NCBI GenBank assembly: GCA_964579265.1 | Contig: CAZOFO010000002.1 | Coordinates: forward strand, 22,856-86,855 | Length of the DNA: 64,000 nucleotides | Reading direction: 5' to 3' | Source of the DNA: Candidatus Micrarchaeota archaeon | GTDB lineage: Archaea; B1Sed10-29 | Shown here: one piece after another, positions 4,093-29,227 of the stretch | How positions within the stretch are numbered: position 1 is the stretch's first letter | Layout of the letters: each line of letters begins with the position of its first letter | Notes under the pieces: generated by a model | What the model was told of the DNA's origin: nothing | The model's database searches: none | What the model saw: the letters and a program-made list of their open reading frames with translations, nothing else | Program-made: the position numbers and the translations under genes

Positions 4093-4103
4093 GTAGTGCC
4101 TAA
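4093..4103 (+). promoter_or_regulatory. conserved 11-mer GTAGTGCCTAA downstream of a TATA-like box, about 90 nt upstream of the lysine-rich protein gene
   Basis: Context: tgtatacagcaaatGTAGTGCCTAAag. Confidence 0.45.
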
Positions 4104-4193
4104 AGTTTCCAAAAACAGCTTTAGTAACTGAATCAAAAACAAATCTAAAAATAATGCATAAAAAGTTTTAAACACCATCTACATAACTATAAA

Positions 4194-5099
4194 GTGGTGA
4201 ACATGGCTTCGAAGAGAGTCAAAGACAAAAAAAGAAAATTGGCGGAGAAAGCAAGAGCAAAGAAATTACCCAGCAAAAAAGAACTTGATAAAAAAATGAA
4301 AAAGAGATTAAATGAAATCAAGAAAGAACAAGAAAAGATGAAGAAAAAATTCGCCAAAGAAAAAAAAGGAGGATTCAACTCATCTAAAGCTAGAAGGATG
4401 AGCTCAAAAAAAGAAGGAGTCAAAAAACCCAAGGAAATGAAAGACGAAGTAGTAAAAAAAAGAGCAGAGAAAAGGTTAAAAAAATTAAGGGAAAAATCTA
4501 AAGATAAGATAAAGAACTTGAATAAAAAAGAAGGAGTAATAGCTGTTCTGCCATCACCCTACAAAGGTGAGGAAATAGTTCTGAGAAAGAGGGAAGTAGC
4601 GGATCATGTTGAAATAGAAGCAATGAGGAAAAAAGGAAAGGAAGAGGAAAAAATAGGATTTATAGGAGCTAGAGAATCTAAAGAGATGGGAGAAAAAATA
4701 ATTGAAATACCAAGCATGAGAGTCGCAAGAGAATACAGAAAAGCAGGGATAGGAACAGCTCTGGACTCAGCACTCCAGCTGGAAATAGAGAAGAAGAAAG
4801 GAAAAGTTGATTATTCAATCCAACCTGCAGGGAGAGAAGGTAAAAAATTCTGGGAAAAAAGAAGAAAGAGAGGAAAAGAATTTGAAATAAAAAATAAAGA
4901 TAAAAAAATAGATACTAAGAGTTCATTAAAAGAAATCAAAAAAGCAAGGGATCCAATCAAAAAAGCCAGTAAACTGGTAGAAGAAGGTAAAATACAGAAG
5001 AGGAACTATAAAGAAGTATCAGAAAAATTAAAGAAAGAAGGAAATACAATAATTGCTAAAGAAATAGAAACAATAATCGAAAAGCACCCTGCTATCTAA
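4194..5099 (+). CDS. lysine-rich highly basic protein of unknown function, possibly nucleic-acid binding
   Basis: 301-aa ORF with an extremely K/R/E-rich N-terminal half. No recognisable catalytic motif. The coding strand is purine-rich like its neighbours. Confidence 0.4.
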   Translation: MVNMASKRVKDKKRKLAEKARAKKLPSKKELDKKMKKRLNEIKKEQEKMKKKFAKEKKGGFNSSKARRMSSKKEGVKKPKEMKDEVVKKRAEKRLKKLREKSKDKIKNLNKKEGVIAVLPSPYKGEEIVLRKREVADHVEIEAMRKKGKEEEKIGFIGARESKEMGEKIIEIPSMRVAREYRKAGIGTALDSALQLEIEKKKGKVDYSIQPAGREGKKFWEKRRKRGKEFEIKNKDKKIDTKSSLKEIKKARDPIKKASKLVEEGKIQKRNYKEVSEKLKKEGNTIIAKEIETIIEKHPAI

Positions 5100-5138
5100 T
5101 TTTGTAGATTTAAGAAAATACCATTCTATAATCTCCGT

Positions 5139-5149
5139 GTAGTGTCTAA
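5139..5149 (+). promoter_or_regulatory. one-mismatch variant (GTAGTGTCTAA) of the 11-mer downstream of a TATA-like box, about 40 nt upstream of egsA
   Basis: Context: ttctataatctccgtGTAGTGTCTAAaag. Confidence 0.4.
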
Positions 5150-5189
5150 AAGCCAACTATTAATAAAGTCATGAGAGAAAAAAATCTAG

Positions 5190-6215
5190 ATGATTAAAAT
5201 GCAGAAACACATACAACTACCAAGCAACTTCTGGATAGGTAAAAACGCGTTGGAAAATCTTGAAAAATACAAGGAAAAAAACACATTAGTAGTAACCGGG
5301 CCAACAACACGGAAAGTAGCCGGAGATAAAGCCGCTGAAATACTTGAAACAGATACGCTAATAGTGGAAGAGCCCACCACCAAAGAAGCAGAGAGAGTGG
5401 AAAAAGAAATCAAAGAAAACGATAAAGACATAGCCATAGCAGTAGGAGGAGGGAAAGTAATAGACGTAACAAAGTCCGGGAGTTACAGAGCAGGTAAAAA
5501 ATTCATATCAATACCAACAACATTAGCCAACGATGGAATAGCAAGTCAAATGGCCTCATTACAAGAAAATGGAACTAGAGAATCAAAAAAAGCAGAAACT
5601 CCAGAAACAGTGATAGTGGACTCGGGAATAATAAAAAACTGCCCGTATGAACTTATAAGAGGAGGAGTCGGGGACACTTTATCAAACCTCACAGCAGTAA
5701 AAGACTGGAAACTCGGTCACATAGTAAAAAATGAATATTACGGAGACTATTCATCCTCACTAACCAAAATGGTGGGAGAATTAGTGAAACAGAGATCGAA
5801 ATCAATAAAAGAAAAAAATAAAGAAGGATTAAGCACATTAACAGAAGCACTAATATCATCAGGAGCAGCAATGGGAATAGCAGGAAGTTCAAGACCAGCT
5901 TCAGGATCAGCACATAAATTAAGCCATACTTTAGATAAAATAGCAGACAAACCAGCAATCCATGGAGAACAATGTGGAGTAGGAGCAATAGCAATGAAAT
6001 ACCTACAAGGAGGAAACTGGAGAGAAATAAAAAACGCTCTAAAAGATGCTGAAGCACCCACTAACGCAGAAGAACTAGGAATAGAAAAAGAAACGATGAT
6101 AGAAGCAATGGTGAAAGCGAAACAGATAAAACCAAAAAGATATACAATACTAGAACATATAGACATAGATAGAGAAATAGCAAAAAACACGCTTGAAGCA
6201 ACAGGAATAATATAA
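5190..6215 (+). CDS. egsA: glycerol-1-phosphate dehydrogenase [NAD(P)+]
   Basis: GGGKVIDVTK, IPTTLANDGIAS, GDTLSNLTAVKDWKLGH, GSAHKLSHTLD and HGEQCGVG are typical of archaeal G1PDH. Confidence 0.85.
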   Translation: MIKMQKHIQLPSNFWIGKNALENLEKYKEKNTLVVTGPTTRKVAGDKAAEILETDTLIVEEPTTKEAERVEKEIKENDKDIAIAVGGGKVIDVTKSGSYRAGKKFISIPTTLANDGIASQMASLQENGTRESKKAETPETVIVDSGIIKNCPYELIRGGVGDTLSNLTAVKDWKLGHIVKNEYYGDYSSSLTKMVGELVKQRSKSIKEKNKEGLSTLTEALISSGAAMGIAGSSRPASGSAHKLSHTLDKIADKPAIHGEQCGVGAIAMKYLQGGNWREIKNALKDAEAPTNAEELGIEKETMIEAMVKAKQIKPKRYTILEHIDIDREIAKNTLEATGII

Positions 6216-6227
6216 AAAGGTGATAAA

Positions 6228-6983
6228 ATGGAAAAAAATACGACAGAAAAACTCAAAAACATCATTGAAAAGGAAGGAGCATGCCACTTGACCCTGATAG
6301 ACCCTGACGAACAAAGCCCTAAAGAATCAGTTAAGATAGCAAAAGAAGCAGAAAAAGCAGGAACAGACGGAATAATGATAGGAGGATCAGGAGTAGACCA
6401 AGATGCAGTAAGAAAAACAAGTAAAAAAATAAAAGAATCTACAGACATCCCAAAAATAATATTCCCAGGAGACACATCCAGCATAAACAAACACGCTGAC
6501 GCAATATTTTTCATGTCTCTATTAAACTCAAGATCCAGATACTGGTTATCAATGGCCCAAGCATTTGGATCATTCAGCGTGAAAAAAGCAGGATTAGAGC
6601 CAATACCTCTTGGATACATAATACTTGAAACAAGCAATAAAACAAGTGTAGAATTCTACGGAGACGCAAACGTAATCCCAAGAGATAAACACAAAATAAC
6701 AGCAGCATTCGCACTAGCAGCACAGTACATGGGAATGGAATTCGCCTACCTGGAAGGAGGATCAGGAGCAGCAGAACCAGTACCTAACAAGATGATAGGA
6801 ATAACTAAAAAAACAGTTGATATCCCAATAATAGTAGGTGGAGGAATAAGAGATAAAAAAACAGCAGCAGAAAAAGTGAAAGCAGGAGCAGATGTGATAG
6901 TAACAGGAACAATAGCAGAAGAAGCTGAAAATGTAGAGAAAAAACTAAAAGAGATAGTAAAAGGAACAAAAGTAAATAAATAA
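6228..6983 (+). CDS. geranylgeranylglyceryl phosphate synthase (PcrB/GGGPS family)
   Basis: TDGIMIGGSG, IFPGDTS, AIFFMSLLNSR, AYLEGGSGA and IIVGGGIR match. The gene sits immediately downstream of egsA. Confidence 0.8.
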   Translation: MEKNTTEKLKNIIEKEGACHLTLIDPDEQSPKESVKIAKEAEKAGTDGIMIGGSGVDQDAVRKTSKKIKESTDIPKIIFPGDTSSINKHADAIFFMSLLNSRSRYWLSMAQAFGSFSVKKAGLEPIPLGYIILETSNKTSVEFYGDANVIPRDKHKITAAFALAAQYMGMEFAYLEGGSGAAEPVPNKMIGITKKTVDIPIIVGGGIRDKKTAAEKVKAGADVIVTGTIAEEAENVEKKLKEIVKGTKVNK

Positions 6984-6990
6984 GAGAAAA

Positions 6991-8010
6991 ATGATAGAGA
7001 TAGACGGATCAGAAGGAGGAGGACAAATACTAAGAACAGCATCTTCCTTAGCAGCCGTTACAGGGAAAAAAGTAAAAATAGAAAACATAAGAGGATCAAG
7101 ACCAAACCCAGGTCTAAAAGAACAACATCTCAAAGGATTAAGAGGTATAGCCGATATAAGTAATGGAGAGCTAGAAAACGATAAAAAAGGATCAAAGGAA
7201 ATAATATTTATACCTGGAGAAAAAATAAACCAAGATCAAAAAATAAAAATAGAAACAGCCGGATCAATAGGACTAATTCTACAGCAGTTTCAAATACTAG
7301 CTCTTAAAAAGAAAATAAACCTAGTAATAGAAGGAGGAGGGACAAGTGTAAAGTGGTCCCCACCTGTAGAATACATGTCAAAGATATTTCTACCTCTAAT
7401 TAAGCAATATGGTTACAAAGGAGAGATTAAAATAGAAGAACACGGGTTCTACCCAAAAGGAGGAGGAAAAGTAAAAGCTCAGTTAAACGGGAAAAAACTT
7501 AAGAGGATAAATATAGAAGATAAAGGAGAAATAGAAAAAATAGACGGAATTTCAAAAGCCAGTAGAACTTTGAAAGAACAAAGAGTAGCGGAAAGACAAA
7601 AAAAGAGAATAAAAAAATTAGTAAAGGAGAAAATGAAGAAAACACCATCTATAAAAGAGAAATATGTAAAATCTCTTTCCCCTGGTTCAGTAATCCTATT
7701 GAGAGCAAAAACTGAAAAAAGCATTATCGGATCTGACCAATTAGGAGAAAAAGGTAAAAGAAGTGAAAAAGTTGCTTTAGAAGCTTTTGAAAAACTAAAA
7801 AGAGAAATAGATTCTAATTCCTCAGTAGATATTCATATGGCAGACCAATTAATACCATATATGGGTTATCTGGAAAAAGAATCAATGATAAAAACTAGAA
7901 AGATAACTCAGCATATAAAAACCAATATAGATACAACTAAAAAGATATTGAAATCAGATTTCAGGATAGAAGGAAATAAAATCAGGTGCTTAGGAAGAAA
8001 CACACTTTAG
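6991..8010 (+). CDS. rtcA: RNA 3'-terminal phosphate cyclase
   Basis: N-terminus IEIDGSEGGGQILRTASSLAAVTGKKVKIENIRGSRPNPGL is the RtcA signature. ADQLIPYM lies near the C-terminus. Confidence 0.8.
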   Translation: MIEIDGSEGGGQILRTASSLAAVTGKKVKIENIRGSRPNPGLKEQHLKGLRGIADISNGELENDKKGSKEIIFIPGEKINQDQKIKIETAGSIGLILQQFQILALKKKINLVIEGGGTSVKWSPPVEYMSKIFLPLIKQYGYKGEIKIEEHGFYPKGGGKVKAQLNGKKLKRINIEDKGEIEKIDGISKASRTLKEQRVAERQKKRIKKLVKEKMKKTPSIKEKYVKSLSPGSVILLRAKTEKSIIGSDQLGEKGKRSEKVALEAFEKLKREIDSNSSVDIHMADQLIPYMGYLEKESMIKTRKITQHIKTNIDTTKKILKSDFRIEGNKIRCLGRNTL

Positions 8011-8015
8011 TAAAA

Positions 8016-8894: not shown

Positions 8895-8915
8895 TTTATC
8901 AACTTTTCATTTTTA

Positions 8916-10665: not shown

Positions 10666-10683
10666 TTTTTATCTTTTTTGTTT

Positions 10684-14094: not shown

Positions 14095-14589
14095 CTACTG
14101 TTCCGCCGGATAAGCAGTTGCTCTTTCAGGAGTCATTTCAACTTTTATTTGGATCTTTGATGGGGGTTTATTTCCTTTTTTCCAGATTTCTTCATTTAGT
14201 TGCCCTGATATCTTTACTTCTCTTTTTAGATGTTTTTTAAGATGTTTTCTTATCACTTTTGCTGCTTTCTTTGATCTTTTCTTTCTTGGAGCTCTTTTTG
14301 CTTTTTTCAGAGGCACTGTAATGTATCTTTCTTCTGTAGGTACTTCTATCTCTTCTGGTTCTTCCTCTTCAGCTGCTTCCATTGTTTCTTCTAGGCCTGC
14401 TTCTTTTAGTTCTTCCTGTATTTCTTCCATTTCTGGTGTTTTTTCAATATCTTCTGTTTCTATTTTAGTTTCTTCTGTCTCTTCTATATCTTTTTCTTCC
14501 GGTTCTTCCTGTTCTGCTTCTTCTATTTGTTCTTCATTTTCTTCTTCTTGTTTCGATTTTTCGTTTTCTTCTTCTGGCATTTTAGGCAC
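14095..14589 (-). CDS. rpl31e: 50S ribosomal protein L31e with an acidic N-terminal extension
   Basis: C-terminal half KKAAKVIRKHLKKHLKREVKISGQLNEEIWKKGNKPPSKIQIKV matches L31e. The N-terminus is a long E-rich tail. Confidence 0.75.
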   Translation of the reverse strand: MPKMPEEENEKSKQEEENEEQIEEAEQEEPEEKDIEETEETKIETEDIEKTPEMEEIQEELKEAGLEETMEAAEEEEPEEIEVPTEERYITVPLKKAKRAPRKKRSKKAAKVIRKHLKKHLKREVKISGQLNEEIWKKGNKPPSKIQIKVEMTPERATAYPAEQ

Positions 14590-16068: not shown

Positions 16069-16139
16069 GGTTAATACCTATGGTTTGTGGTCTCGGTTTA
16101 TTTTTGTTCTGTGTGCTTTAAAATTATTTCAGAAGAATT

Positions 16140-16150
16140 TTAGGCACTAC
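16140..16150 (-). promoter_or_regulatory. copy of the conserved 11-mer GTAGTGCCTAA in minus orientation, about 70 nt upstream of the rnp4 start
   Basis: The plus strand reads ttaggcactac, i.e. acatGTAGTGCCTAAaat on the minus strand. An A/T-rich TATA-like stretch lies upstream on the minus strand. Confidence 0.5.
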
Positions 16151-16200: not shown

Positions 16201-16305
16201 ATGCGCCGACCGGGATTCGAACCCGGGTTGTTGGCTTGGAAGGCCAATGTTTGTTAGTCCAGCTGTTGTTCCAGGTGGACTCTTAACCCCTGGACCATCG
16301 GCGCT
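16201..16305 (-). tRNA. tRNA with a Gly-like anticodon arm (UCC); the 5' half carries about 28 nt of extra sequence, suggesting non-canonical intron(s)
   Basis: On the minus strand: acceptor GCGCCGA/TCGGCGC, T arm CCGGG-TTCGAAT-CCCGG, anticodon arm TTGGC-CTTCCAA-GCCAA. About 50 nt lie between the acceptor 5' strand and the anticodon stem instead of about 20. A D stem GTCC...GGAC can form only if a roughly 20-nt insert is removed. Confidence 0.55.
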
Positions 16306-17293: not shown

Positions 17294-17304
17294 GTAGTGC
17301 CTAA
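17294..17304 (+). promoter_or_regulatory. conserved 11-mer GTAGTGCCTAA downstream of a TATA-like box, upstream of aTrm56
   Basis: aaatataatatctggcttgaatGTAGTGCCTAAttttt lies 20-65 nt before the candidate start codons. Confidence 0.5.
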
Positions 17305-17322: not shown

Positions 17323-17895
17323 ATGCTAATTATTTTAACAGGTATGAGAATAAATCAATTGGATAAGATGCTAAAAGTTCTCAGGCTCGGGCACAGGAGA
17401 GAAAGAGATAAGAGGATGACAACCCACACAGCCCTCACAGCTAGGGCTTTAGGAGCAGATGAATTCATATTTACAGGAGATAAGGATAAAAAACTATTAA
17501 AGAATATAAGGGACGTAGTAGATAGATTTGGAGGAGCATTCACATTAAGACACAGCAAAGACTGGAAAAAAACTGTTGATAAATTTAAAGAAAAAGGGAA
17601 GGTAGTTCATTTAACAATGTACGGGGAAAAAATACAGAATTTAGAAAGAGAAATAAAGAAAATGGAGAAATGCCTAGTAATAATAGGAGGTAAAAAAGTA
17701 CCTGGAGAAGCATATGAAACAGCTGATTATAACATTGCAGTTACAAATCAACCTCATTCAGAAGTTTCCTCCCTTGCAGTATTCCTAGACAGATATTACA
17801 ATGGAGAAGAACTAGATTTTGAGTTTCAAGGGGGAAAAATAGAAATAAAACCAAATCAATCAGGTAAAACAGTAAAAGAAAACCAAAAAGAATAA
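17323..17895 (+). CDS. trm56: tRNA (cytidine56-2'-O)-methyltransferase aTrm56 (SPOUT)
   Basis: LRLGHRRERDKRMTTHTALTARALGA is the aTrm56 N-terminal signature. The true start is probably the internal Met at 17368 (MLKVLRLGH). Confidence 0.75.
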   Translation: MLIILTGMRINQLDKMLKVLRLGHRRERDKRMTTHTALTARALGADEFIFTGDKDKKLLKNIRDVVDRFGGAFTLRHSKDWKKTVDKFKEKGKVVHLTMYGEKIQNLEREIKKMEKCLVIIGGKKVPGEAYETADYNIAVTNQPHSEVSSLAVFLDRYYNGEELDFEFQGGKIEIKPNQSGKTVKENQKE

Positions 17896-18543: not shown

Positions 18544-19176
18544 ATGCCTGAAACTAATGTAAAATTAGTTGAAAAACTAGTTGAAGAAGGAATAATAAAT
18601 ACTGAGAAAGTAAAAGAAGCTTTTCTAAAGATTAAAAGAGAAGATTTTGTTCCAGAAAAATTAGAAGAATACAGCTATCTAGATAAACCTCTATCAATAG
18701 GATCCGGACAAACTATTTCTGCACCTCACATGGTAGCTATGATGACAGAATACTTAAAATTAGAGAAAAATTCTAAAGTAATGGAAATAGGAACAGGTTC
18801 AGGATATCAAGCAGCTATTATATCACACATAATCGGAGAAGGAAAACTACATACTATAGAGAAAATAGAAGAACTATACAAACAATCAAAAGAAAAACTG
18901 AAACCTTACAAAAACATAAAAGTCTATAAAGGAGATGGATCTCTAGGAATACCGCAAGCAGCCCCCTTCGACAGGATAATATCAACCTGTGGAGCACCGG
19001 AAATTCCAAATTCCTGGGGAAAACAACTAAAAGAAAATGGAATAATAGTAGCTCCAGTTGGAGGAAAAAGACACCAGAAACTTAAAAGATATGAAAAAAG
19101 AAAAGGAGAACTAAAAGAAGAAGATTTGAATATCCCGTGCGCATTCGTACCTATGAAAGGAAAGAATGGGTTTTAA
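18544..19176 (+). CDS. pcm: protein-L-isoaspartate O-methyltransferase
   Basis: REDFVPE, SIGSGQTISAPHMVAMM, VMEIGTGSGYQAA, VYKGDGSLG and GIIVAPVG match PIMT. Confidence 0.85.
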   Translation: MPETNVKLVEKLVEEGIINTEKVKEAFLKIKREDFVPEKLEEYSYLDKPLSIGSGQTISAPHMVAMMTEYLKLEKNSKVMEIGTGSGYQAAIISHIIGEGKLHTIEKIEELYKQSKEKLKPYKNIKVYKGDGSLGIPQAAPFDRIISTCGAPEIPNSWGKQLKENGIIVAPVGGKRHQKLKRYEKRKGELKEEDLNIPCAFVPMKGKNGF

Positions 19177-22100
19177 GCCCTTTTTTTCTGATTAAAAACA
19201 CTATTAAAGAAGAAGTCATTAAACCTAGGAAAATGAAGTAAAAATACTTATTAGATCTTAAATCTAAGTAAGAACCTGTTAGGTTTTTTTCTTCTTTAGA
19301 AAAATCTTTAATAGGTTCTTTTCTCATAGAAATATTTTCTATTACTTTAAAATATTTTTTCCGATGAGATCTACTGCACTGAACTTCTATTGAATGTTCC
19401 CCTTCTTCCATATTACTGTATCTTTTCCTTATTATATTCTCTTTTCTTTCTGGATTTTCCCATAACCCATTATTTATTCTAACAAAACAGTTTTCATCAT
19501 TTATTATCCTTGCTTTAAATTTGAAGGATTTATTTTCCTTTTCACTTGGTGAGATTATATTTATTTCACTTTTATGTTCTTTTGTTTCAGCTAGCTCTTC
19601 ATATTCCTTTTCCCATTTTTCTTCTATCGTTTTATTTTCTTCAAAACTTTCATTTTCTTCTTCATCATCTTCTTCTGAAGGAATCTCTATAGGGCTAATT
19701 GATCCGGATCCTCCTGAAGACCCTCCAGAACCTCCTCCGGAATCAGGAGGAGAAGTTTCATCTTCTTCAATTTCGAAAATTAATGTATGTTCATTAACCA
19801 CTGAGCTATTATGTTCAGATTCTAGCCAATATTCTACTTTATAGTGGTTTCCATTTGGGAGATCAAAGTTTTCTTGATTAAGTATATTTTCTCCCTTACT
19901 TAGATTTTTCCAATTGCTCCAGAAATCTATCTTAGTATTATTGGATTTATCTACTCCTAATCGAACTTTAAATTTGTTTTTGAAGGAACTATTATGGGTT
20001 TTATTACTTGTTTCATTCTTTTCATTATTAGAAATGTTTATCTTGAAATCTTTTAATTTGGATTTCTCTTTATAATTAGTATCCCAGGTTCTTGAGAACC
20101 AAGTACCAATATTTATATCCTCCAGATGAGTTTTTTGGAAATTAGAAATATTTCCATGATTATTCATGTTACTTTTATCATGTACTGTGTTATTTTTGAT
20201 TTTTTCCATTGTCCAAAATAAAGATTCATTTCCAATCGGAAAATACCTATATTTATACAGGTCTTCTATATTTTCTTTATTTAAAGAAAATTTATAGGTT
20301 CTTACATCATCTATTCTGCCTTTAAAATAGCTTTTATTTTGGTTTGAACCTCCAAGAGTAAGTTTAGATACATTTAATAGATCTATATATGAATTATTTA
20401 TTTTTTCAGTTTTCTTCAATTCATTATCTATGTATATTTTAGTTTTATTTTCATTTATAGAGGTAACTATATGTTGCCATTCATCTTTTTTTATTCCTGA
20501 AGATTCTATTTTAATTGATTTATTTTCTAATTCTCCCTCAGTATTTAAATAAAGTTTTAATTTTCCGTTTTTTATCCTTAGATTCTTTTTAGTTTTTCCT
20601 TCTTCAGAATCAATTTGTATTATCTCTTGTTCGGATTTATTATCTTGAAAGCGAATCCAGAAACTTGTGGAAAAGGTATTGTTTATTCCAGTAATGTTTT
20701 TAATGGAAACTTTAGTTTCATTAAATACAAGAGAACTGATTTTATTTGTCGTTAAAAACCCATCCTCTATCTCTATAAAATTATTGTGATCAGACCAGTA
20801 TTCCCAATCTTTTTGTGTTTCCTTCCTCCATTCTCCTGGGTTATTTTTTGTTCTAAATGACTTTATCTTTCCTTTATCATAATTACTCGTGTTACCTTGT
20901 TTTTCTTTAATCTTTGAATAAAATTCATAATGTGTATCGGGATCTAATTCTTTGATTGTTTGATTAAATCTTTTACTTTCTTTTATTGTTCCTAAAGAAA
21001 TATTTTTCCAATTTGAATTTTCTTTTTTCCAGTAAAAATAAGCTTCTTTTTCAGTTTCTTTATCAGTATCTAAGTCTCCATATAGTTCAGCAGATTCATT
21101 GGTAATATTTTTCGGATCAAGAGTTTTAGAGTTAAAATCTAGTTTTTTGTAAACATTTCCCTTTTCATTAACTATGTATTTTCCTTCTTCACTCCATTTT
21201 ATCTTTTCTCCACCATCTTCTATAGTTTTTATTTTTGTCCAATTTTGAGTTTCGTGAATATGGATATCACCATCACTGAAAGCTAGATATTTTTGATTAG
21301 GAGACCAACTTGGTTTCCCATACTCCTCAAATTCAGCTATTTCCGCATAGTTATTTTTACTATCTAGTACATGAGAACCTATAGAAAGATATCTATTATC
21401 TGGGCTGAATTCTATTCCTTTAATATCCCAATGTCCAGGCATTTCTGGAAAACCAGATCTTTCCCCCCACTCTGATATCCTAGTATGTTCTTCAGTTTCC
21501 CATATTGATAAAAACTCTTCTGATCTCCAGAAAACAACAAGAGAATCATTAGGAGATATTTCTAATTCGTCAATTACTAAGATGCTGTCTTTATCTCCCA
21601 TTTCAGAGTAATTCCATTTATTTTTAATAGAAATTTCAGGATTTTCTGATAAAAATAAGTAGTCATCACTATCTGATATGATGGCATTACCACCAACGAA
21701 CAAATTTTTACCTGAACTTAAGAAATTAACATGCTTATTATATACATAAGAAGATTTTCTTTCTAATTCAGGTGCTTCAAATACTCTTAGATTCTTTCTA
21801 GATCTTACATCTGTTGGATGAACTGAGTACATCCCTACTATCACTTCACCATCTAATGTAGTATCTAAACTATATACTGGATAAGTTTCAAGTTTATTTT
21901 TTTCTTTGATACTCCATTCTTCCTTTTCGTAAGATATTATCCAATAATAATCGTCTTCTTCTGTATTAGGGGTAGTAAACAAAGTTTTATTAGTGAATCC
22001 GAAAGTATTTCCGTAATTACTACTACCTTTGAATTCTTCTAAGGTTTCTTCAAGTGTAAAGCTGATTGAATTTTCTCCTAATCCCCAAGAAGCTTTTACA

Positions 22101-22708
22101 GGTTTTTCCGTATCTAAAACCTCTACTTCAATTTCTAAGGTTTTATTAGTCTCTTTTAACATTTTAGAGCTTTTATTTGTTTCAGAACTTTTTTTTGATA
22201 TTCTATCAGGTATTTTTTTAACATCATAATCTTTTACTCTATTTATTCTTAAAGGAATTTCTTCAAATTTGTTTCTTAGTCTTTTATATTCTTTTAAAGA
22301 AATTTTTTCCTCTCTAAACCTATAAAATTTTTCTTTAATTAACCTAGAATCTTTATAATATTCTTCTATGTTTTTTTCTTTATCTTGAATATCGTTATAA
22401 ATCAATTGACCAAAGCTCGTCTTAGAAAAATTTATTTCTATATTATATATTCCATCATCTATCTTTTCTTTGTTCTTATTTTCAATTCTAAAAGGATATG
22501 TATCTTCCCAATCTCCTGTTTCCTCATTATATTTTTGTATTTCTTCAGTCATCTGGTATTCTAAGGAAAGATGTTCTTCGGTTAGGGCAGATTCAAACTC
22601 TAAAGAAAGACCTATATTTAAGATAAAAGATAATAGGATAAGTGAGAGAAATATTTTTAGTTTTATTCCTCTTGTATTTGAATTATAGTTACAGTGGTTC
22701 AGGTTCAT
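19151..22708 (-). CDS. large cell-surface protein with PD40/TolB-like beta-propeller repeats and a LamG/concanavalin-like domain, C-terminal TM anchor
   Basis: 1185 aa. N-terminal hydrophobic signal (ILLSFILNIGLS). Repeated FSPDNRYLS / WSPNQKYLAFSDGD propeller-like motifs. LamG-like block WQHIVTSINENKTKIYIDNE...GRIDDVRTYKFSL. GGSGGSSGGSGS linker. C-terminal FIFLGLMTSSLIVFLIRKK anchor. Confidence 0.6.
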   Translation of the reverse strand: MNLNHCNYNSNTRGIKLKIFLSLILLSFILNIGLSLEFESALTEEHLSLEYQMTEEIQKYNEETGDWEDTYPFRIENKNKEKIDDGIYNIEINFSKTSFGQLIYNDIQDKEKNIEEYYKDSRLIKEKFYRFREEKISLKEYKRLRNKFEEIPLRINRVKDYDVKKIPDRISKKSSETNKSSKMLKETNKTLEIEVEVLDTEKPVKASWGLGENSISFTLEETLEEFKGSSNYGNTFGFTNKTLFTTPNTEEDDYYWIISYEKEEWSIKEKNKLETYPVYSLDTTLDGEVIVGMYSVHPTDVRSRKNLRVFEAPELERKSSYVYNKHVNFLSSGKNLFVGGNAIISDSDDYLFLSENPEISIKNKWNYSEMGDKDSILVIDELEISPNDSLVVFWRSEEFLSIWETEEHTRISEWGERSGFPEMPGHWDIKGIEFSPDNRYLSIGSHVLDSKNNYAEIAEFEEYGKPSWSPNQKYLAFSDGDIHIHETQNWTKIKTIEDGGEKIKWSEEGKYIVNEKGNVYKKLDFNSKTLDPKNITNESAELYGDLDTDKETEKEAYFYWKKENSNWKNISLGTIKESKRFNQTIKELDPDTHYEFYSKIKEKQGNTSNYDKGKIKSFRTKNNPGEWRKETQKDWEYWSDHNNFIEIEDGFLTTNKISSLVFNETKVSIKNITGINNTFSTSFWIRFQDNKSEQEIIQIDSEEGKTKKNLRIKNGKLKLYLNTEGELENKSIKIESSGIKKDEWQHIVTSINENKTKIYIDNELKKTEKINNSYIDLLNVSKLTLGGSNQNKSYFKGRIDDVRTYKFSLNKENIEDLYKYRYFPIGNESLFWTMEKIKNNTVHDKSNMNNHGNISNFQKTHLEDINIGTWFSRTWDTNYKEKSKLKDFKINISNNEKNETSNKTHNSSFKNKFKVRLGVDKSNNTKIDFWSNWKNLSKGENILNQENFDLPNGNHYKVEYWLESEHNSSVVNEHTLIFEIEEDETSPPDSGGGSGGSSGGSGSISPIEIPSEEDDEEENESFEENKTIEEKWEKEYEELAETKEHKSEINIISPSEKENKSFKFKARIINDENCFVRINNGLWENPERKENIIRKRYSNMEEGEHSIEVQCSRSHRKKYFKVIENISMRKEPIKDFSKEEKNLTGSYLDLRSNKYFYFIFLGLMTSSLIVFLIRKKGLKTHSFLS

Positions 22709-22772: not shown

Positions 22773-22795
22773 GTAGTGCCTAATGTAGTGCCTAA
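22773..22795 (+). promoter_or_regulatory. two tandem copies of GTAGTGCCTAA separated by 1 nt, downstream of an A/T-rich box
   Basis: atttttaagttaattctagtttGTAGTGCCTAAtGTAGTGCCTAAatc sits in the gap between the surface-protein gene and tRNA-Met. Confidence 0.5.
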
Positions 22796-22835: not shown

Positions 22836-22904
22836 GTGTCAGACCGCCTATCATTCTTCATCGGTGCCGCGGGATCCTCAGAATTAAAGGAATCATCATC
22901 CACA
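22836..22904 (-). ncRNA. candidate C/D-box sRNA (2'-O-methylation guide)
   Basis: Minus-strand read: ATGTGG-ATGATGA(C box)-TTCCTTTAATT-CTGA(D')-GGATCCCGCGGCACC-GATGAAG(C'-like)-AATGATAGGCGGT-CTGA(D box)-CAC. Total about 65 nt. A TATA box (CTTATATAAAAAGG) lies about 25 nt upstream on the same strand. Confidence 0.3.
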
Positions 22905-23327: not shown

Positions 23328-23351
23328 GAGTGGCACCCCTGTTCCAGTATT
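23328..23351 (-). repeat. island repeat family 2, copy B (AATACTGGAACAGGGGTGCCACTC, minus orientation)
   Basis: The reverse complement AATACTGGAACAGGGGTGCCACTCTCTGATGAAAAATATTTG has the same AATACTGGAA + GGGGT..CA core as the other copies. Confidence 0.5.
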
Positions 23352-23617
23352 AACTATTTTTGGTTAGAAATAGATAATTTTTAATTTTAAAAAACAGTTC
23401 AAATTGTTTTTAATTATGTTTTAGAATATTAAAATCTTTATCTAAAGTATTGGAATAATATAATGTGTTTATTTTTTTATTAAAGGAAAATTAAGTTATT
23501 TGGATGTTTTTAGTTTATTAAGATGAAGTTATAATAATATAATACATAAATATATTTGTATAATATTTGCAGGAGTATTGAGTGTGTGTAATGTAAACTT
23601 GATTCTAGTAATATTAT

Positions 23618-24268: not shown

Positions 24269-24411
24269 TATTTCATTTCTTTATTTTGAAATAATTGTTA
24301 TTATCCTAGTATTTAATGTTACATAAAACATGTAAGTTAAAATACTTTATTTTCGATATTTTCAAAGTGTTCAGAAAGAAGAAACTAAAAAGGCTTTAAA
24401 CTACTTTTTAT

Positions 24412-24714
24412 TTAGATTGAAGGTTTAATTGGTGGTTCTTCCGTATTTTCTTTTTTATTATTCTTTGTTATATTACTTCCAAGTAGAACTATATCTCCTA
24501 CTGATTCTACTCTATCGTATTTTATACTATCTTCTTTCATTATTCTTCTTAGTTCTCTTTTTCCAACATTCTTTAGTTCTTCTGTTATTAATCTTACTGC
24601 TTCTCCTTCTTCTGTGTCTATTACTATATCGTTTACTGTTCCAAGGAGTTCGCCTCCTTTTGAATAGATTGGTTTACCGTATATTTCTGATATTTTATTT
24701 GTCATATTTATCAA
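24412..24714 (-). CDS. PRC-barrel domain protein
   Basis: KISEIYGKPIYSKGGELLGTVNDIVIDTEEGEAVRLI fits the PRC-barrel pattern G..LG.V.D...D. Paralogous to 50192..50452. Confidence 0.5.
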   Translation of the reverse strand: MINMTNKISEIYGKPIYSKGGELLGTVNDIVIDTEEGEAVRLITEELKNVGKRELRRIMKEDSIKYDRVESVGDIVLLGSNITKNNKKENTEEPPIKPSI

Positions 24715-24782
24715 AATCTAAAAAGTACTCTTTACTTAAATACTTTTTCCTTGGTTTACTAGAAATCACACTGGAAAAAAGT

Positions 24783-24808
24783 AATACTGGAAGTAAGGGG
24801 TCACTGAG
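24783..24808 (+). repeat. island repeat family 2, copy C (AATACTGGAAGTAAGGGGTCACTGAG), directly upstream of a TATA box and the 11-mer
   Basis: Full context: AATACTGGAAGTAAGGGGTCACTGAG-ATATTTATAC-ttGTAGTGCCTAAgaattt-ATG, i.e. repeat, TATA box, 11-mer, start codon. Confidence 0.5.
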
Positions 24809-24820
24809 ATATTTATACTT

Positions 24821-24831
24821 GTAGTGCCTAA
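24821..24831 (+). promoter_or_regulatory. conserved 11-mer GTAGTGCCTAA, 6 nt before the ATG of the 59-aa ORF
   Basis: TATA box atatttatac lies 2 nt upstream. The layout is compatible with a leaderless or near-leaderless transcript. Confidence 0.5.
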
Positions 24832-24837
24832 GAATTT

Positions 24838-25017
24838 ATGATAGAAATGGTTTATGTGAGAAAGAAAAAAATAAATGGAAACGAATATTGGTACGCTTCG
24901 AAGACTAAAAGGAAAGATGGGAAGGTTAAACAGGAAACAGTTGCTTATATAGGCCCATGTAGAAAAATAAACTATGGAGAAGCTAAAAAAATAGCTAGGG
25001 AAAAATCGGAAGACTAA
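24838..25017 (+). CDS. 59-aa ORF resembling the N-terminal fragment of an SSV-type partitioned integrase (int(N))
   Basis: MIEMVYVRKKKINGNEYWYASKTKRKDGKVKQETVAYIGPCRKINYGEAKKIAREKSED. The aromatic-x-Y ... [DN]G[KE]VK[QE]..Y[IV]GP pattern resembles SSV1 Int residues about 20-45, from memory. The ORF falls below the 60-aa cutoff of the ORF track. Confidence 0.3.
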   Translation: MIEMVYVRKKKINGNEYWYASKTKRKDGKVKQETVAYIGPCRKINYGEAKKIAREKSED

Positions 25018-25074
25018 AAGAGTTATCATTATATTTAATTTAAATACTATTTATTTCCATTTTTATAGTTTAAG

Positions 25075-25101
25075 AATACTGGAAGTGAGGGGGTGTCATA
25101 C
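25075..25101 (+). repeat. island repeat family 2, copy D (AATACTGGAAGTGAGGGGGTGTCATAC) followed by a TATA-like box
   Basis: AATACTGGAAGTGAGGGGGTGTCATAC-TATTTAAAT. No 11-mer and no long ORF follow this copy. Confidence 0.45.
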
Positions 25102-25158
25102 TATTTAAATTTTTTCCAAAGTAATAGCATAGAAAATGTTTAGATCCTTTCAAAACTT

Positions 25159-25743
25159 TCATTTACCCTCAAAATTTAATAATTCTTCTTTATCCATATT
25201 AAGTCGATAGAAGACTTTTCTACCTACTCTTTTCTTAGAAAGGTAATTAGCTTTAAATAAGGTATTTAATAGTTCTGAACATCTATTACGGCTTAGTCCG
25301 AGTTCTTCTGATAATTCTGAAGAATCTAATTCTCCTTTTTCTCCAACTATCTCAAGTATCTGTCGAAGTCTAGGCGACAGATTCGACACTTTTCGAGACT
25401 TTGTCGAGACCTGTCGCGACTCATCTCGACCTTCTAGATCTTCATTTTTACTTATTTCAACCATCCAATCTAGCATATCTTCGTATAATTCTTTTATTTC
25501 TAATAGTTCATCTATTTTTTTATTCATTTCCCAGAGTAATTCTCTTTCTTGTATGGTTTTCTCCTTCTTACTATCTTCTTTTAGTTTTTGAACTGTTAAA
25601 GCTCCTTCTTCTGATTTTTCATAGTTTTTATTAGTAGAATTAGCTTCTTTATCTTCTATTAGCTTCTTTTTTTCTTTTTTAAGATCTTTATCTTCTTTTT
25701 CGTTTTTGAATAGAGATTTGAGAAAAGGGAACAGACCCCTCAC
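25159..25743 (-). CDS. winged-helix transcriptional regulator of the island, GTG start
   Basis: C-terminal wHTH LSPRLRQILEIVGEKGELDSSELSEELGLSRNRCSELLNTLFKANYLSKKRVGRKVFYRLN. The GTG start lies inside a GTGAGGGGTC sequence that matches the family-2 core. Confidence 0.5.
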   Translation of the reverse strand: MRGLFPFLKSLFKNEKEDKDLKKEKKKLIEDKEANSTNKNYEKSEEGALTVQKLKEDSKKEKTIQERELLWEMNKKIDELLEIKELYEDMLDWMVEISKNEDLEGRDESRQVSTKSRKVSNLSPRLRQILEIVGEKGELDSSELSEELGLSRNRCSELLNTLFKANYLSKKRVGRKVFYRLNMDKEELLNFEGK

Positions 25744-25833
25744 CCCCTGCGTCGCTCTGCGGCACTATCTATGATTATTATCTCACACATACTTAAATAC
25801 TTTTGGTTGTTTTTCTCTTTCATATACTCCAAT

Positions 25834-25844
25834 GTAGTGCCTAA
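25834..25844 (+). promoter_or_regulatory. GTAGTGCCTAA copy 1 of 4 in the 650-bp non-coding stretch
   Basis: Context: ttcatatactccaatGTAGTGCCTAAaaa. Confidence 0.45.
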
Positions 25845-25893
25845 AAATTTCTTTTAATTGGATTTTCTCTATTCTAGTATAATTTACTCACGT

Positions 25894-25904
25894 GTAGTGC
25901 CTAA
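25894..25904 (+). promoter_or_regulatory. GTAGTGCCTAA copy 2 of 4 (extended unit ctcacgtGTAGTGCCTAAaa)
   Basis: Context: agtataatttactcacgtGTAGTGCCTAAaa. Confidence 0.45.
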
Positions 25905-25997
25905 AATTATTTCTTTTTAGCTCCTCACACACCCCTAACCTTCCTATTTTCATCATTTCACTGTATTTGCCTTGGATCCATCCAAAATTCCTCACGT

Positions 25998-26008
25998 GTA
26001 GTGCCTAA
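25998..26008 (+). promoter_or_regulatory. GTAGTGCCTAA copy 3 of 4 (same 20-nt extended unit as copy 2)
   Basis: Context: ccaaaattcctcacgtGTAGTGCCTAAaa. Confidence 0.45.
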
Positions 26009-26099
26009 AACCGCTGTTTTTTAGCATTTTTGAAGGTATGTAGGGGGATCTTTAGCTTTACTTCTTGTTTTTTCCTGGTTTTTGTTTTTCTTCTTACAT

Positions 26100-26110
26100 G
26101 TAGTGCCTAA
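26100..26110 (+). promoter_or_regulatory. GTAGTGCCTAA copy 4 of 4
   Basis: Context: cttcttacatGTAGTGCCTAAaat, followed by a T-rich low-complexity tract up to 26370. Confidence 0.45.
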
Positions 26111-26370
26111 AATATCTCTATTTCTGTTGATTCTCATTTTTTTGTTTTTTCTGAATTTCTTCTTTTTTCAGATTTTTTCTTTTGATTTTGAATTTTTTGT
26201 TTTGCTCTCACGTTTTTTCCATTCTCTTGTTAACTATGTTTTATATTATCTTGTTTAATTGTTTTTTGTTGTATTTTTGCAGATATCAAACTTATTTATT
26301 ATTACATATTATAAGTTTTTGAATACAAAGGTTTAAATATAATAAATGTTTTTTATATGTTAGAATCGAG

Positions 26371-26697
26371 GTGATACCTATGTTAACCCCCATTTTCTTT
26401 AAGGAAAAACCAGTGCGAGCCCTTGCCTCTTTGGCCAATGATGACAAAGCTTGGTACGCTTCCTTATTAGCAAAGGAAATAGACTGTACTCGCCCACATA
26501 TGAATAATATCTTAGATAAATTCCATAAACATAATTTAATAGAGACTGAAGAAGAAGGAAGGATAAAAAGGATATCTCTAACATCTCAAGGCGAGGATTT
26601 AGCAATAGAATTCCAAAATTTGCTTAGAAGAATGGAAAGAATTGATGAAAAATCTCAAATGGAGCCAGAGAGCGAAGGGGAATCAGATGAAGAATAA
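26371..26697 (+). CDS. winged-helix DNA-binding regulator
   Basis: WYASLLAKEIDCTRPHMNNILDKFHKHNLIETEEEGRIKRISLTSQGEDLA is a wHTH (MarR/PadR-like) signature. Acidic C-terminal tail. Confidence 0.5.
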   Translation: MIPMLTPIFFKEKPVRALASLANDDKAWYASLLAKEIDCTRPHMNNILDKFHKHNLIETEEEGRIKRISLTSQGEDLAIEFQNLLRRMERIDEKSQMEPESEGESDEE

Positions 26698-27391
26698 TGA
26701 AAATCTTAAAACCCGATACGCTACTTTGGATGATGTGCCTAAGTTACTGGACCACCCCGGAGAATTTGAATTCTCTACAAAATATTTGCATGAAGCGATT
26801 AGATCCAGTAGACAAGGTATAATTATTTTAGAGGAAAATGAAGAAATAAAAGCATTTGTACATGTTAGAAGAGGAGCAGAAGGAATTAAAATAGATAGTT
26901 ACGGGTTTAGAAATAAAGAAGAAATAATTAAGCTACTTTCAGAAGTTGAATCTCTGACTATTGATCTTCCAATATACATATATGTTGATAAAAAGGATAA
27001 AGATATTTCTTTATTCAAAAAAGCAGGGTATAAAGAAGAATTAGAAACAGAAGACGGACAAGTAAAGCTGGTTAAACCTTGGTTGAAGATCCACGAAGAC
27101 CGTAAAAAAGAACTGATATTTAAAGAAAAAGCTGAAGAAGCTAGAAAACAGCATGAGAAGATTTATCCTATATCCAAAGGCAGAATAAGTAATCTTGAAT
27201 CTAATCTAATAATTTTAGAGAAAATAATAGAAGAAATGAGAGAAGAAGAGAAGGAAGAATCTTCTGATACGTCTAAGGAATCTAAAATGGAAAAGAAAGA
27301 GGATTTAGTCTCTTGTCCTATATGTGGAGATGAATTCGAAACTGAAAGAGGTATGAAAATCCATAAGACGAAAATGCACGGTTCTTCTTGA
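26687..27391 (+). CDS. GNAT-like domain protein with a C-terminal C2H2-type zinc finger
   Basis: Start chosen at the ATG at 26687, which follows a GGGGA RBS; the ORF track gives 26642. The GNAT-like core is LEENEEIKAFVHVRRGAEGIKIDSYGF. The C-terminus CPICGDEFETERGMKIHKTKMH fits C-x2-C-x12-H-x4-H. Confidence 0.45.
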   Translation: MKNNENLKTRYATLDDVPKLLDHPGEFEFSTKYLHEAIRSSRQGIIILEENEEIKAFVHVRRGAEGIKIDSYGFRNKEEIIKLLSEVESLTIDLPIYIYVDKKDKDISLFKKAGYKEELETEDGQVKLVKPWLKIHEDRKKELIFKEKAEEARKQHEKIYPISKGRISNLESNLIILEKIIEEMREEEKEESSDTSKESKMEKKEDLVSCPICGDEFETERGMKIHKTKMHGSS

Positions 27392-27392
27392 T

Positions 27393-27827
27393 TTATTCTT
27401 TTTTCTTTTTACTTATCTTTTTTTGTCTTTTGTGTATAGTTTCCCAACAGTTTGCTATCTCTTTTAACGTTTTGCTAAATTCCAAGGTTGTATGTATCCC
27501 TTTTTCCTGGGTTTTCTTTATCAATCCTCTTCTTTTCAGCATAGGGATCACCTTGTTCTGTATTGTAGATTTAGAATGTCCTTTCTCTTCTGTTAAGTGT
27601 TTCATTAATTCTTTTCTAGGTACTCCTTGGAAATTTTCTGGTTCCAACAAGTAATTTATCAGGTCTTTAGCTACTTCAGTAGATACTGGGTTAACATGGC
27701 TTGGATATATGTGTTCTATTATGTCTTCGGTTATTACGTGGTCCTTTTGTAGTTCTGTTGATGCTGATTCTAGATATAAGGCATTTTTTCTATTTATTTT
27801 TGCTGAATATTCTGGTGGTTTTGCCAT
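27393..27827 (-). CDS. hypothetical protein, possible winged-helix DNA binding
   Basis: 144-aa ORF. HLTEEKGHSKSTIQNKVIPMLKRRGLIKK resembles a recognition helix plus wing. Basic C-terminal tail. Confidence 0.4.
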   Translation of the reverse strand: MAKPPEYSAKINRKNALYLESASTELQKDHVITEDIIEHIYPSHVNPVSTEVAKDLINYLLEPENFQGVPRKELMKHLTEEKGHSKSTIQNKVIPMLKRRGLIKKTQEKGIHTTLEFSKTLKEIANCWETIHKRQKKISKKKKE

Positions 27828-28046
27828 TTTTTCACCTCTTTATTTTAATTTATATTTATCACACTGTTCCGGTATAAATTTGTTTTGGTTGTTGGTTTTT
27901 TCGGTGTTTTCCCATGTTTTTCGATTGTTTAGGCGAGGGTTCTGGGTAGAAAAACATTCATACACACCGGGCCCGTGTGTTGTTGTGTTCTTCTGAATTT
28001 GTCTCTTCAGATTCGTTATACTGGTTCGGTGTGATATAATTTGTTA

Positions 28047-28826
28047 TTATAGATGTGTTAGTTTATTTCCATAATACCATAGTAGGTAGATTAGTAGACC
28101 TACTAAGAAGAATATGATGAATAGTGGAACTAAGAACCCCATTATAGGTACGCCTGTTGCTCTTTTCACCGGATCTGTTTCAGGGTGTTCTTCCGGATAA
28201 GGTTCTTCTAAAAGTTCTTCTTCCTCTTCTTCAGTTAGGTTTAATGCTTCTTCTTCCATTGCTTGTTCTGTTTGCATATGTTCAGGAGGAGTTATTTCTC
28301 CTCTCATTGTTGTTGCTGCTATGAAGATTGCTGTTATTAAGAATCCGAGTATTATGATGATTGAGATTGGTTTCAGTACTTTTGGTTTTTTGACTTTTCT
28401 TTCTTTTTGTAGTTCTCTTTCTCTTTCTTCTTCTATCTGGGTTTTTGAGTCTTTTGGTCTTATATCCTCTACTTCGCTTGCAGGAATTTGTACTTTAACT
28501 GATCCTTCGTATCCACAGTCTTTGCAGTAGAATTTATTTGGTGCTCCTAGGCCTATTATTGTTTTTACTGATCTAGAATCCATTGAAGCGTATTCTAACC
28601 TTGGGCTACCACAACTAGGGCAGATTTGAACTTTTTTACCTTCTTTCTTTTCTTGCTCTTTAGTCTTTTTTTCTTTTTCCTTCTTCTGCTTTTCTTCTTG
28701 TTTTTTAGCCTTTTTTTCCTTTTCTTTCTCTTCTTTTTCATCTTCTTTATCGTGTACTCTTGCTTTGTGGATCTTAACGCCTCTTTCATTCTTTAATTCT
28801 TTCCCACATATGTCACATTTGGCCAT
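28047..28826 (-). CDS. membrane-anchored protein with an N-terminal C2H2-type zinc finger and a second zinc ribbon
   Basis: N-terminus MAKCDICGKELKNERGVKIHKARVH is a C2H2 pattern. A K/E-rich linker follows, then ICPSCGSP...YCKDCGYEG. The C-terminus has two TM helices (ISIIIILGFLITAIFIAA; IMGFLVPLFIIFFLVGLLIYLLW). Confidence 0.5.
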   Translation of the reverse strand: MAKCDICGKELKNERGVKIHKARVHDKEDEKEEKEKEKKAKKQEEKQKKEKEKKTKEQEKKEGKKVQICPSCGSPRLEYASMDSRSVKTIIGLGAPNKFYCKDCGYEGSVKVQIPASEVEDIRPKDSKTQIEEERERELQKERKVKKPKVLKPISIIIILGFLITAIFIAATTMRGEITPPEHMQTEQAMEEEALNLTEEEEEELLEEPYPEEHPETDPVKRATGVPIMGFLVPLFIIFFLVGLLIYLLWYYGNKLTHL

Positions 28827-29216
28827 GCTTAACTCCTTACTTATGATAGTGGAGCGTATAATAAAAGCTTATCCCTACTTTTTCTTGTTTTACCCTTGCT
28901 TCCCGTCCATTGATAATATGTATTTTATAAAATGTATTTTAATATAAGGCCAAAAACACGATAATTATAATTTAAATTATAAAATAAAGTTTAAAGAAAA
29001 TCGATGTTATTCTCTAATATGTATAATGGATTTTATAAAAAATAGTTTCGGCGGATCAGGCCGGAGAAAATGAAATCTCTACAAAGTAATTGCAAAGAGG
29101 GTTTTCCACCTGATTTACCCTTGTTAGAATTTGCGGTTGAAATTCTAGGGTCTCACGTTTCGAAAATTAGTCATGAGTCTTCTGGAGCTGGTGTGAAAAG
29201 GGTGAAAACCGGGTTT

Positions 29217-29227
29217 TTAGGCACTAC
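29217..29227 (-). promoter_or_regulatory. GTAGTGCCTAA copy in minus orientation that supplies the last codons and the TAA stop of the GNAT-CDP-alcohol phosphatidyltransferase gene
   Basis: The minus strand reads ...gaagaaTGTAGTGCCTAA, encoding E-E-C-S-A-stop. Confidence 0.5.

Follow-up and report, generated by a model that had tools for sequence, protein, structure and literature searches.

The DNA analysed here is a stretch of 64,000 nucleotides (nt) from a Candidatus Micrarchaeota archaeon (contig CAZOFO010000002.1, positions 22,856 to 86,855 of the forward strand; hereafter the window), and it carries a dispersed 11-mer, GTAGTGCCTAA, whose over-representation is genuine and not due to chance. 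That the 11-mer is the site of a dedicated, sequence-specific DNA-binding factor, as an earlier note on this sequence proposed, is well supported, since the word is exact at orthologous promoters in other genera, forms helix-phased arrays, and brackets the canonical TATA box of one gene found repeatedly beside it. We put at roughly 0.6 the probability that GTAGTGCCTAA is an operator in double-stranded DNA whose reader is most probably a 56-amino-acid (aa) basic protein encoded in the window itself. No account of either the motif or the small protein turned up in the searchable literature, where full-text searches for the 11-mer, its reverse complement, and related terms returned only unrelated primers and papers.

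Distribution and conservation of the 11-mer

The window is archaeal, with a GC content of ~34%, and its genes include those for RtcB, deoxyhypusine synthase, the EgsA-like and PcrB lipid enzymes, Pus10, SRP54/FtsY, Rpr2, aTrm56, and TFE. The 12 copies listed in the earlier note were all confirmed in position and strand, 11 of them exact and one, at 5139, a C-to-T variant, whereas dinucleotide-preserving shuffles of the window gave 0.60 copies on average and never more than three. A search that tolerated two mismatches added just three sites (15 in total, with 11 expected by chance), so the word behaves as all-or-none and not as a graded consensus. Copies are confined to the part of the window between 4 and 29 kb, with none from 30 to 64 kb, and 11 of the 12 lie within non-coding DNA, which makes up ~11% of the sequence. 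Across all loci sampled, 29 of 172 copies (17%) fall inside open reading frames (ORFs), even though 83% of the sequence is coding. Over-representation together with confinement to non-coding promoter DNA is what would be expected of an operator. The conserved unit is short, as the only informative flanking positions over 263 non-redundant instances are a T at -1 (74%) and a C or A at +12, and the preferred form of the word is tGTAGTGCCTAAm. No RNA family was detected at any motif copy, either by Rfam at gathering and E-value thresholds or by ARAGORN.

Relatives were sampled as syntenic contigs (L002-L010, some from soda-lake sediment), found through aTrm56 homologues with 61-75% identity, and as one contig (L155) found through a homologue of the small protein with 81% identity. 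Over this range of protein identity (61-81%), the 11-mer is letter-perfect at orthologous sites while the flanking DNA differs, again as expected of an operator. The exact orthologous places are upstream of Rpr2 (also in L002 and L005), upstream of aTrm56 (also in L002-L004, L006, L008-L010, and L155), upstream of an ORF of 57-62 aa, in a cluster beside a winged-helix gene (four copies in L155 and at least three in L006), and ahead of a non-coding block next to the copy at 29217. L155 alone has eight copies in 20 kb. A single distant contig that came from the aTrm56 scan of the genome collection is without the motif. Seven of the 12 window copies sit in a low-GC stretch adjoining tRNA-Met, around which gene order is syntenic in four relatives.

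The motif extends well beyond these relatives. Taking two copies within 30 nt as the criterion, we found tandem pairs in at least 120 metagenome contigs from groundwater, lake, marine, and soda-lake samples, with GC contents from 26% to 62%; a few of these matches, in coding tandem repeats, were set aside. Same-strand neighbours lie mainly 22-24, 30-33, or 44-45 bp apart, centre to centre, and these spacings follow a 10.5-bp periodicity (R=0.44) that none of 5,000 uniform simulations reached, a statistic that is somewhat inflated because related loci are not fully independent. Spacing by whole turns is what would be seen if proteins were bound along the same face of the double helix.

A small basic protein encoded next to the motif

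When ORFs starting within 120 nt downstream of any copy were clustered, one gene family was dominant, accounting for 39 of 97 instances. Its members are basic proteins of 50-65 aa with the signature (M)xFxxKKxIxGxxYYYLxxSxRxxGKVxxKxxxYLGK, and the window's member is the 56-aa protein (MVYVRKKKINGNEYWY...) encoded at 24847-25017 on the plus strand, the candidate cognate factor; if translation began at 24838 instead, the product would have 59 aa and be identical to database entry P0126. An exhaustive profile search placed the family at 2,847 clusters of 50% identity (E<=0.001), with the domain almost always N-terminal. Proteins with two tandem copies of the domain also exist (P0121 and P0241), and they match the tandem arrangement of the sites. 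In Pacearchaeota-like contigs the domain forms the N-terminus of a class II synthetase with features of glycyl-tRNA synthetase (GlyRS), or is encoded by a separate gene immediately upstream. We rejected a link to tRNA-Gly, as the fused glyS genes are preceded by tRNA-Cys.

Profile searches of the six-frame translations of all loci yielded 31 distinct family promoters, of which 29 have a motif (one mismatch at most) that ends no more than 40 nt from the ATG. A strict TATA box whose end lies 18-24 nt ahead of the ATG is present in 18, which is the standard geometry of leaderless archaeal mRNAs, and the majority of these 18 have the motif both upstream and downstream of the box. In nine of the 31 the motif is inverted relative to the gene, which argues for recognition of duplex DNA and not of RNA. 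Many contigs repeat the same architecture, in which a motif is followed by 6-7 nt, a canonical B recognition element (BRE) and TATA box (e.g., caaaaGATTTAAATA), 7 nt, a second motif, 3 nt, and the ATG. In the window, the copy at 24821-24831 (+), the putative auto-operator, stands between the start of the small-protein gene and a TATA-like box, TATTTATACT (24810-24819, +; read from the sequence), that ends one base before it.

We also picked four homologues by protein similarity alone (L131, L135, L138, and L139). The Woesearchaeota-type L131 and L135 have a TATA box, 4 nt, an exact motif, 8 nt, and the ATG. Each has two or three more copies inside 180 nt and none besides in 20 kb. L138 and L139 carry close variants, GTAGTTCCTAA and GTAGTTACTAA, respectively, at the same position. 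As homologues chosen in this way carry the motif too, the link between gene and site is not an artefact of how the loci were found. The order motif, 6 or 7 nt, TATA, 4 or 7 nt, motif, 3 or 8 nt, ATG is thus a recurrent one, and with the ~10.5-bp phasing it is a further property expected of an operator. In some lineages the small gene's own promoter is the sole local target, and in the window's lineage there are many more copies. Taken together, the site and the protein are a pair conserved, letter for letter in the case of the site, over a very wide range of small-genome (DPANN-type) archaea.

The small protein had no significant match in Pfam, NCBIfam, or the PDB sequences. Its best Pfam match was Arm-DNA-bind_4 (E=0.7, for one member), and other members had none. 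The predicted fold is a three-stranded antiparallel sheet packed on a C-terminal helix, and this model resembles the arm-type DNA-binding domains of integrases and the AP2 DNA-binding domain. A Foldseek search against the PDB returned nothing significant for the small protein and there is no sequence-level link, so the resemblance is confined to the fold. Such domains bind as monomers to asymmetric sites of ~10-11 bp, frequently arranged as direct repeats, and the asymmetric, head-to-tail 11-bp site agrees with this mode of reading.

In one contig of 54% GC (L130, 3937-5285), a family member is immediately followed by a tyrosine integrase gene and is itself preceded by three inverted motif copies; L078 and L120 have similar promoters. 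The adjoining integrase gene in L130 suggests that the pair may also travel on integrative elements. Kinship with integrases was considered and rejected, as an hhalign comparison of the family with the N-terminal part of this L130 integrase gave a probability of 0.04%.

Motif copies in the window and their surroundings

The earlier note described a TATA-like octamer 3-12 nt upstream of most copies, a description that did not survive comparison with background: over the 25 nt that precede the window copies, the best match to TTTAWATA is no better than in random intergenic DNA (mean 5.64 versus 5.45 of 8, P=0.30), and at Rpr2 and aTrm56 the box common to at least one relative sits downstream of the motif. 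A strict TATA box at a fixed offset (-15 or +18) occurs in only ~4-5% of 254 non-redundant instances, and these are promoters of the small-protein family, to which TATA enrichment beside the motif is restricted. The observation that the motif points toward the next downstream gene holds within the window, where about four copies are informative. It does not carry over to related loci, which show no strand bias (21 co-oriented versus 26 opposed), in a crude and weak test, because the ORF map used leaves out genes under 70 aa.

At the start of the motif-bearing region, an exact copy (4093-4103, +) has as its neighbours a KaiC-like gene (3257-4042) and a gene for a Lys-rich, GNAT-like protein (4203-5099), and lies ~64 nt upstream of the best TATA match of the latter. 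The one-mismatch copy, GTAGTGTCTAA (5139-5149, +), is 40 nt upstream of the egsA-like gene (5190-6215, Fe-ADH_2), which is followed by pcrB. On the minus strand, the exact copy at 16140-16150 lies between an intron-containing tRNA gene (16202-16303) and Rpr2, the first gene of a long ribosomal and translation gene row. A TATA-like box, ATAATTTTAAAG (16116-16127, -), is found 12 nt downstream of this copy and is kept in L002; from this comparison it is the probable Rpr2 promoter, with a predicted start site, and the motif would here be upstream of the TATA box. The copy upstream of the aTrm56-TFE-PCMT gene row (17294-17304, +) has a similar arrangement, with a TATA-like sequence, ATTATTTTAA (17329-17338, +), 24 nt after the motif and, as we infer, 29 nt before the aTrm56 start, which is conserved (MLKVLRL, 17368). 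In L002 and L006, comparable TATA-like boxes lie 2-33 nt after the aTrm56 motif.

The tRNA gene next to the Rpr2 copy (16202-16303, -) was missed by ARAGORN and by Rfam at gathering threshold. It has one or more apparent non-canonical introns in or after the D-arm and an anticodon loop that by eye reads CTTCCAA, which would make it Gly(UCC), and its homologues in L002, L005, and L006 have different inserts at the same place.

Two exact copies form a tandem pair (22773-22783 and 22785-22795, both +), 12 bp apart from centre to centre and 65-87 nt upstream of a divergent gene for a 1185-aa LamG-domain protein (19151-22708, -). Adjoining the pair is a candidate C/D-box small RNA (22838-22902, -), with clear box C (TGATGA), D' (CTGA), C' (ATGAAGA), and D (CTGA) sequences on the minus strand and a weak Rfam match to sR5 (E=0.053).

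Four further exact copies (25834-25844, 25894-25904, 25998-26008, and 26100-26110, all +) are clustered in a 636-nt spacer between a minus-strand gene for a 194-aa protein with a coiled coil and a winged helix (25159-25743) and a plus-strand gene for a small MarR-like winged-helix protein (26380-26697). The 194-aa protein is an alternative candidate binder, and its gene is syntenic with the small-protein gene in L005, L006, and L155. The first copy lies ~30 nt upstream of the TATA box of the 194-aa winged-helix gene, in inverted orientation, the second and third are preceded by TCACGT, and the fourth is preceded by TTACAT. Cluster copies at 25881-26025 share an extended unit, TCACRT-GTAGTGCCTAAA, in some cases continued by a T-run and TTTTTAGC, and the TCACRT extension is also present in the equivalent clusters of L155 and L006. 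An extension (c)tc(a/c)nnt, reported earlier for the motif as a whole, is thus, within the window, confined to this cluster, and its recurrence in the relatives suggests a composite site at 25.8-26.1 kb. A repeat search found weak similarity among the cluster copies over up to ~40 nt, local to the cluster.

The exact copy at 29217-29227 (-) supplies the last codons and the stop of an ORF (29217-30347, -), and for this reason had been set aside as an exception that was not a promoter. In L155, the equivalent copy and the same conserved non-coding block lie outside any gene, so the overlap with the stop codon is incidental. The block (29055-29159, -), downstream of the copy, shares 36 identical bases (TTTGCAATTACTTTGTAGAGATTTCATTTTCTCCGG) with its counterpart in L155 (~14135-14250, -). 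A hairpin is predicted for the block, although the two sequences show no compensatory changes and Rfam has no match for it; it may be a small RNA driven from the 29217 motif site.

Other short sequences recur around the small-protein gene. A second dispersed element, AATACTGGAAGTRAGGGG(TCACT), flanks it at 24783-24805 and 25075-25092 and is found inverted at 23329-23359; in L005, L006, and L155 it is kept ~20-25 nt upstream of the 11-mer before the small gene, and it may be the site of another factor. An identical 15-mer, TACTTAAATACTTTT, occurs at 24733-24747 and 25790-25804, upstream of a PRC-barrel gene and of the 194-aa winged-helix gene, and its minus strand, AAAAGTATTTAAGTA, is BRE/TATA-like. 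From this shared 15-mer, the promoters of the two genes are the same.

Some observations come from the wider set of loci. The variant GTAGTGGGTAA, in which CC is replaced by GG, lies near exact copies in L034, L037, L064, L082, and L156; it is sometimes the promoter-proximal operator of a family gene and elsewhere forms an inverted pair, TTACCCACTAC...GTAGTGGGTAA. Thirteen viral-class contigs from IMG/VR (L142-L154) carry motif pairs, and no family gene was found in the stretches fetched; one of them, L145, is the same contig as the metagenome locus L058. In a group of low-GC contigs (L024, L047, L048, L068, L073, L080, L085, L089, L103, L106, L115, and L122), a conserved block that has scpA on one side and variable genes on the other begins to be found 100-250 nt beyond the motif pair and contains GTCATTTTTTAAGRGTAACA, a BRE/TATA sequence (GAAAGGTTTATATA), and then TATCACCTCTTTTTCCCCAGGAGAGGCTTCAGG...CTTGAAGA.CCTCCYAGGG. 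This last part forms a hairpin whose 5' end resembles an anti-Shine-Dalgarno sequence; it matches no Rfam family and is absent from the window.

Proposed regulation by the 56-aa protein, its rivals, and its meaning

In the explanation we favour, each asymmetric 11-bp site would be read by a single monomer of the small protein, and monomers on sites separated by whole helical turns would sit next to one another along the same face of the DNA. The protein's own promoter, of the leaderless type, has sites directly before the BRE/TATA as well as between TATA and the predicted start of transcription. There the protein would silence its own gene by hindering the recruitment of TBP/TFB or of the polymerase; self-repression is proposed because copies bracket the BRE/TATA. 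In the window's lineage, extra copies would have been recruited to the Rpr2 and ribosomal row, to aTrm56-TFE, and, in the variant form, to egsA-pcrB, as well as to the winged-helix regulator pair with its four-copy array, the large LamG-domain surface-protein gene, and the probable small RNA. At Rpr2 and aTrm56, the two promoters compared across species, a motif upstream of the probable TATA box is compatible with activation, and archaeal factors bound upstream of TATA often activate. The earlier suggestion of a repressor over the transcription start site therefore fits the small-protein gene alone, at the 24821 copy, and not Rpr2 or aTrm56.

Several observations weigh against the small protein as reader. 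Most of the family promoters sampled came from a motif-based search and only four or five are independent, L045 has a family gene with no motif nearby (100 nt from the start), and there is no clear co-variation of protein and motif, as GTAGTTACTAA in L139, GTAGTTCCTAA in L138, and GTAGTGGGTAA in L034 and L156 track no obvious residue changes. In many lineages the domain is fused to a GlyRS-type synthetase or encoded directly upstream of it, and given these fusions it could equally be a tRNA-binding appendage. This leads to an explanation that we regard as unlikely without being negligible, namely that the operator is read by another regulator, either the 194-aa coiled-coil and winged-helix protein or an unlinked factor, while the small protein is the most constant target and perhaps a tRNA-binding module. 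The winged-helix gene neighbours the small gene in the window, L005, L006, and L155, with three or four motif copies beside it in three of these, domains appended to aminoacyl-tRNA synthetases are usually RNA-binding, and the targets in the window's lineage are centred on tRNA (Rpr2, aTrm56, and nearby tRNA genes). However, L005 has the winged-helix gene and no adjacent cluster, and in L131 and L135 the arrays are found only at the small gene, with the nearest DUF7343-type gene 8 kb away or absent from the annotation. Winged-helix dimers, moreover, usually recognise palindromes, unlike the asymmetric, head-to-tail site described here, and no gene other than that of the small protein is constant over all the motif-bearing lineages sampled.

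The motif could instead mark chromosome-organising or centromere-like sites analogous to parS or parC, onto which the small protein would load the segregation or condensation machinery. Letter-perfect conservation at great phylogenetic depth recalls parS, direct-repeat arrays flanking the promoter of a small autoregulated binder recall ParR/parC, the window copies all lie within 25 kb and are followed by 35 kb without any, and in other lineages pairs adjoin scpA or an Orc1/Cdc6-like gene. We nevertheless consider it improbable, because ParA, SMC, and Orc1 were not found among the window genes scanned, the sites are at specific orthologous promoters, and two genomes have copies solely at the small gene's promoter within 20 kb. 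Replication-origin ORB (origin recognition box) repeats fare no better, with no Orc1/Cdc6 among the window genes scanned and an Orc1-like neighbour only in L020 and L127. A core promoter element (initiator or promoter-proximal), or else a sequence recognised by a paralogue of TBP or, as the earlier note had among its candidates, of TFB, would explain why copies are intergenic, near gene starts, and, at the small gene, between the TATA box and the start site. Its distances, however, are anything but fixed, with 2-7 nt from an upstream TATA box, 2-33 nt ahead of a downstream one, and 3-99 nt from the ATG; copies also occur inverted, as tandem arrays, or upstream of TATA, and the motif is missing from most of the window's promoters, so that this explanation is quite improbable. 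Action at the RNA level, as a conserved 5' leader or as the target of a small RNA or an RNA-binding protein, is very improbable. Exact conservation is typical of base-pairing targets, and all 12 window copies are on the strand of a gene downstream, but at the 18 family promoters whose TATA box ends 18-24 nt before the ATG, the best defined, the motif would be upstream of the start site, it occurs on either strand relative to the regulated gene, and it has no Rfam match. Least credible is an origin as relics of a mobile element (a miniature inverted-repeat transposable element or the ends of an insertion sequence) or of local duplication. The crowding of copies in the low-GC stretch beside tRNA-Met, the weak ~40-nt similarity within the cluster, and the integrase neighbour in L130 would suit it, but just 11-13 bp are conserved over the 263 instances, with no similarity beyond the core of the kind that such elements share, the low-GC stretch keeps its gene order in four relatives, and copies are at orthologous housekeeping promoters.

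An operator read by the 56-aa protein would belong to a familiar kind of system, that of an autoregulated factor and its operator; what is new is the protein family, its minimal size, the asymmetric and invariant 11-bp word, its breadth in small-genome archaea, and the fusion to a synthetase. There is no detectable sequence relationship between the small protein and AP2/ERF or the arm-type domains of tyrosine integrases (HPI, P4, lambda, and Tn916), and unlike the latter it is free-standing or the N-terminus of a synthetase and not part of a recombinase, with sites at cellular promoters and not in att arms. The closest parallels in regulatory logic are archaeal factors such as MDR1, LrpA, Phr, TrmB/TrmBL1, SurR, and Ptr2, whose effect is likewise set by position relative to the BRE/TATA; here the operator is between TATA and start at the protein's own gene and upstream of TATA elsewhere, and autoregulation is expected in both. 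Those factors, however, are larger helix-turn-helix, winged-helix, or Lrp proteins, many with ligand-binding domains, that read degenerate and usually palindromic sites, whereas the protein described here has 56 aa, no sensor domain, and an asymmetric 11-bp site that is invariant within and between genomes. The aCcr1-type regulators of Sulfolobales are also very small DNA-binding proteins with a short motif at many promoters, but they have a ribbon-helix-helix fold and a palindromic motif and belong to a different phylum. The Pacearchaeota-like GlyRS fusions, whose promoter carries the operators, recall the autoregulation of Escherichia coli AlaRS, with the difference that the putative DNA-binding module is separable, exists as a stand-alone gene, and is not linked to glyS in the window. 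Like ParR/parC and ParB/parS, the pair would combine a small binder that controls its own gene, arrays of direct repeats on both sides of that gene's promoter, and an extremely conserved site, but here no partition ATPase is linked and the sites are at housekeeping promoters.

As a broader and more tentative proposal, at rather less than even odds, the integrase-arm/AP2-like protein of 56 aa may be a lineage-wide regulator of DPANN-type archaea (Woesearchaeota, Pacearchaeota, Nanoarchaeota-like lineages, and their relatives), with an 11-bp word frozen over 26-62% GC. The GlyRS fusion would then control its own promoter, in the window's lineage the protein would have been recruited to promoters of tRNA processing, ribosomal, and lipid synthesis genes, and the pair would be the first specific regulator and operator for these uncultivated archaea. 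To our knowledge, almost nothing is known about gene regulation in DPANN archaea, most of which cannot be grown alone. The 11-bp word and the 56-aa family offer a precise pair for which synthetic DNA and a peptide-sized protein would suffice as a test, and they provide a handle for predicting sets of target genes directly from metagenomes. They also present the unusual case of a putative binding site without drift over very deep divergence, and raise the possibility of a synthetase that carries its own transcriptional repressor domain.

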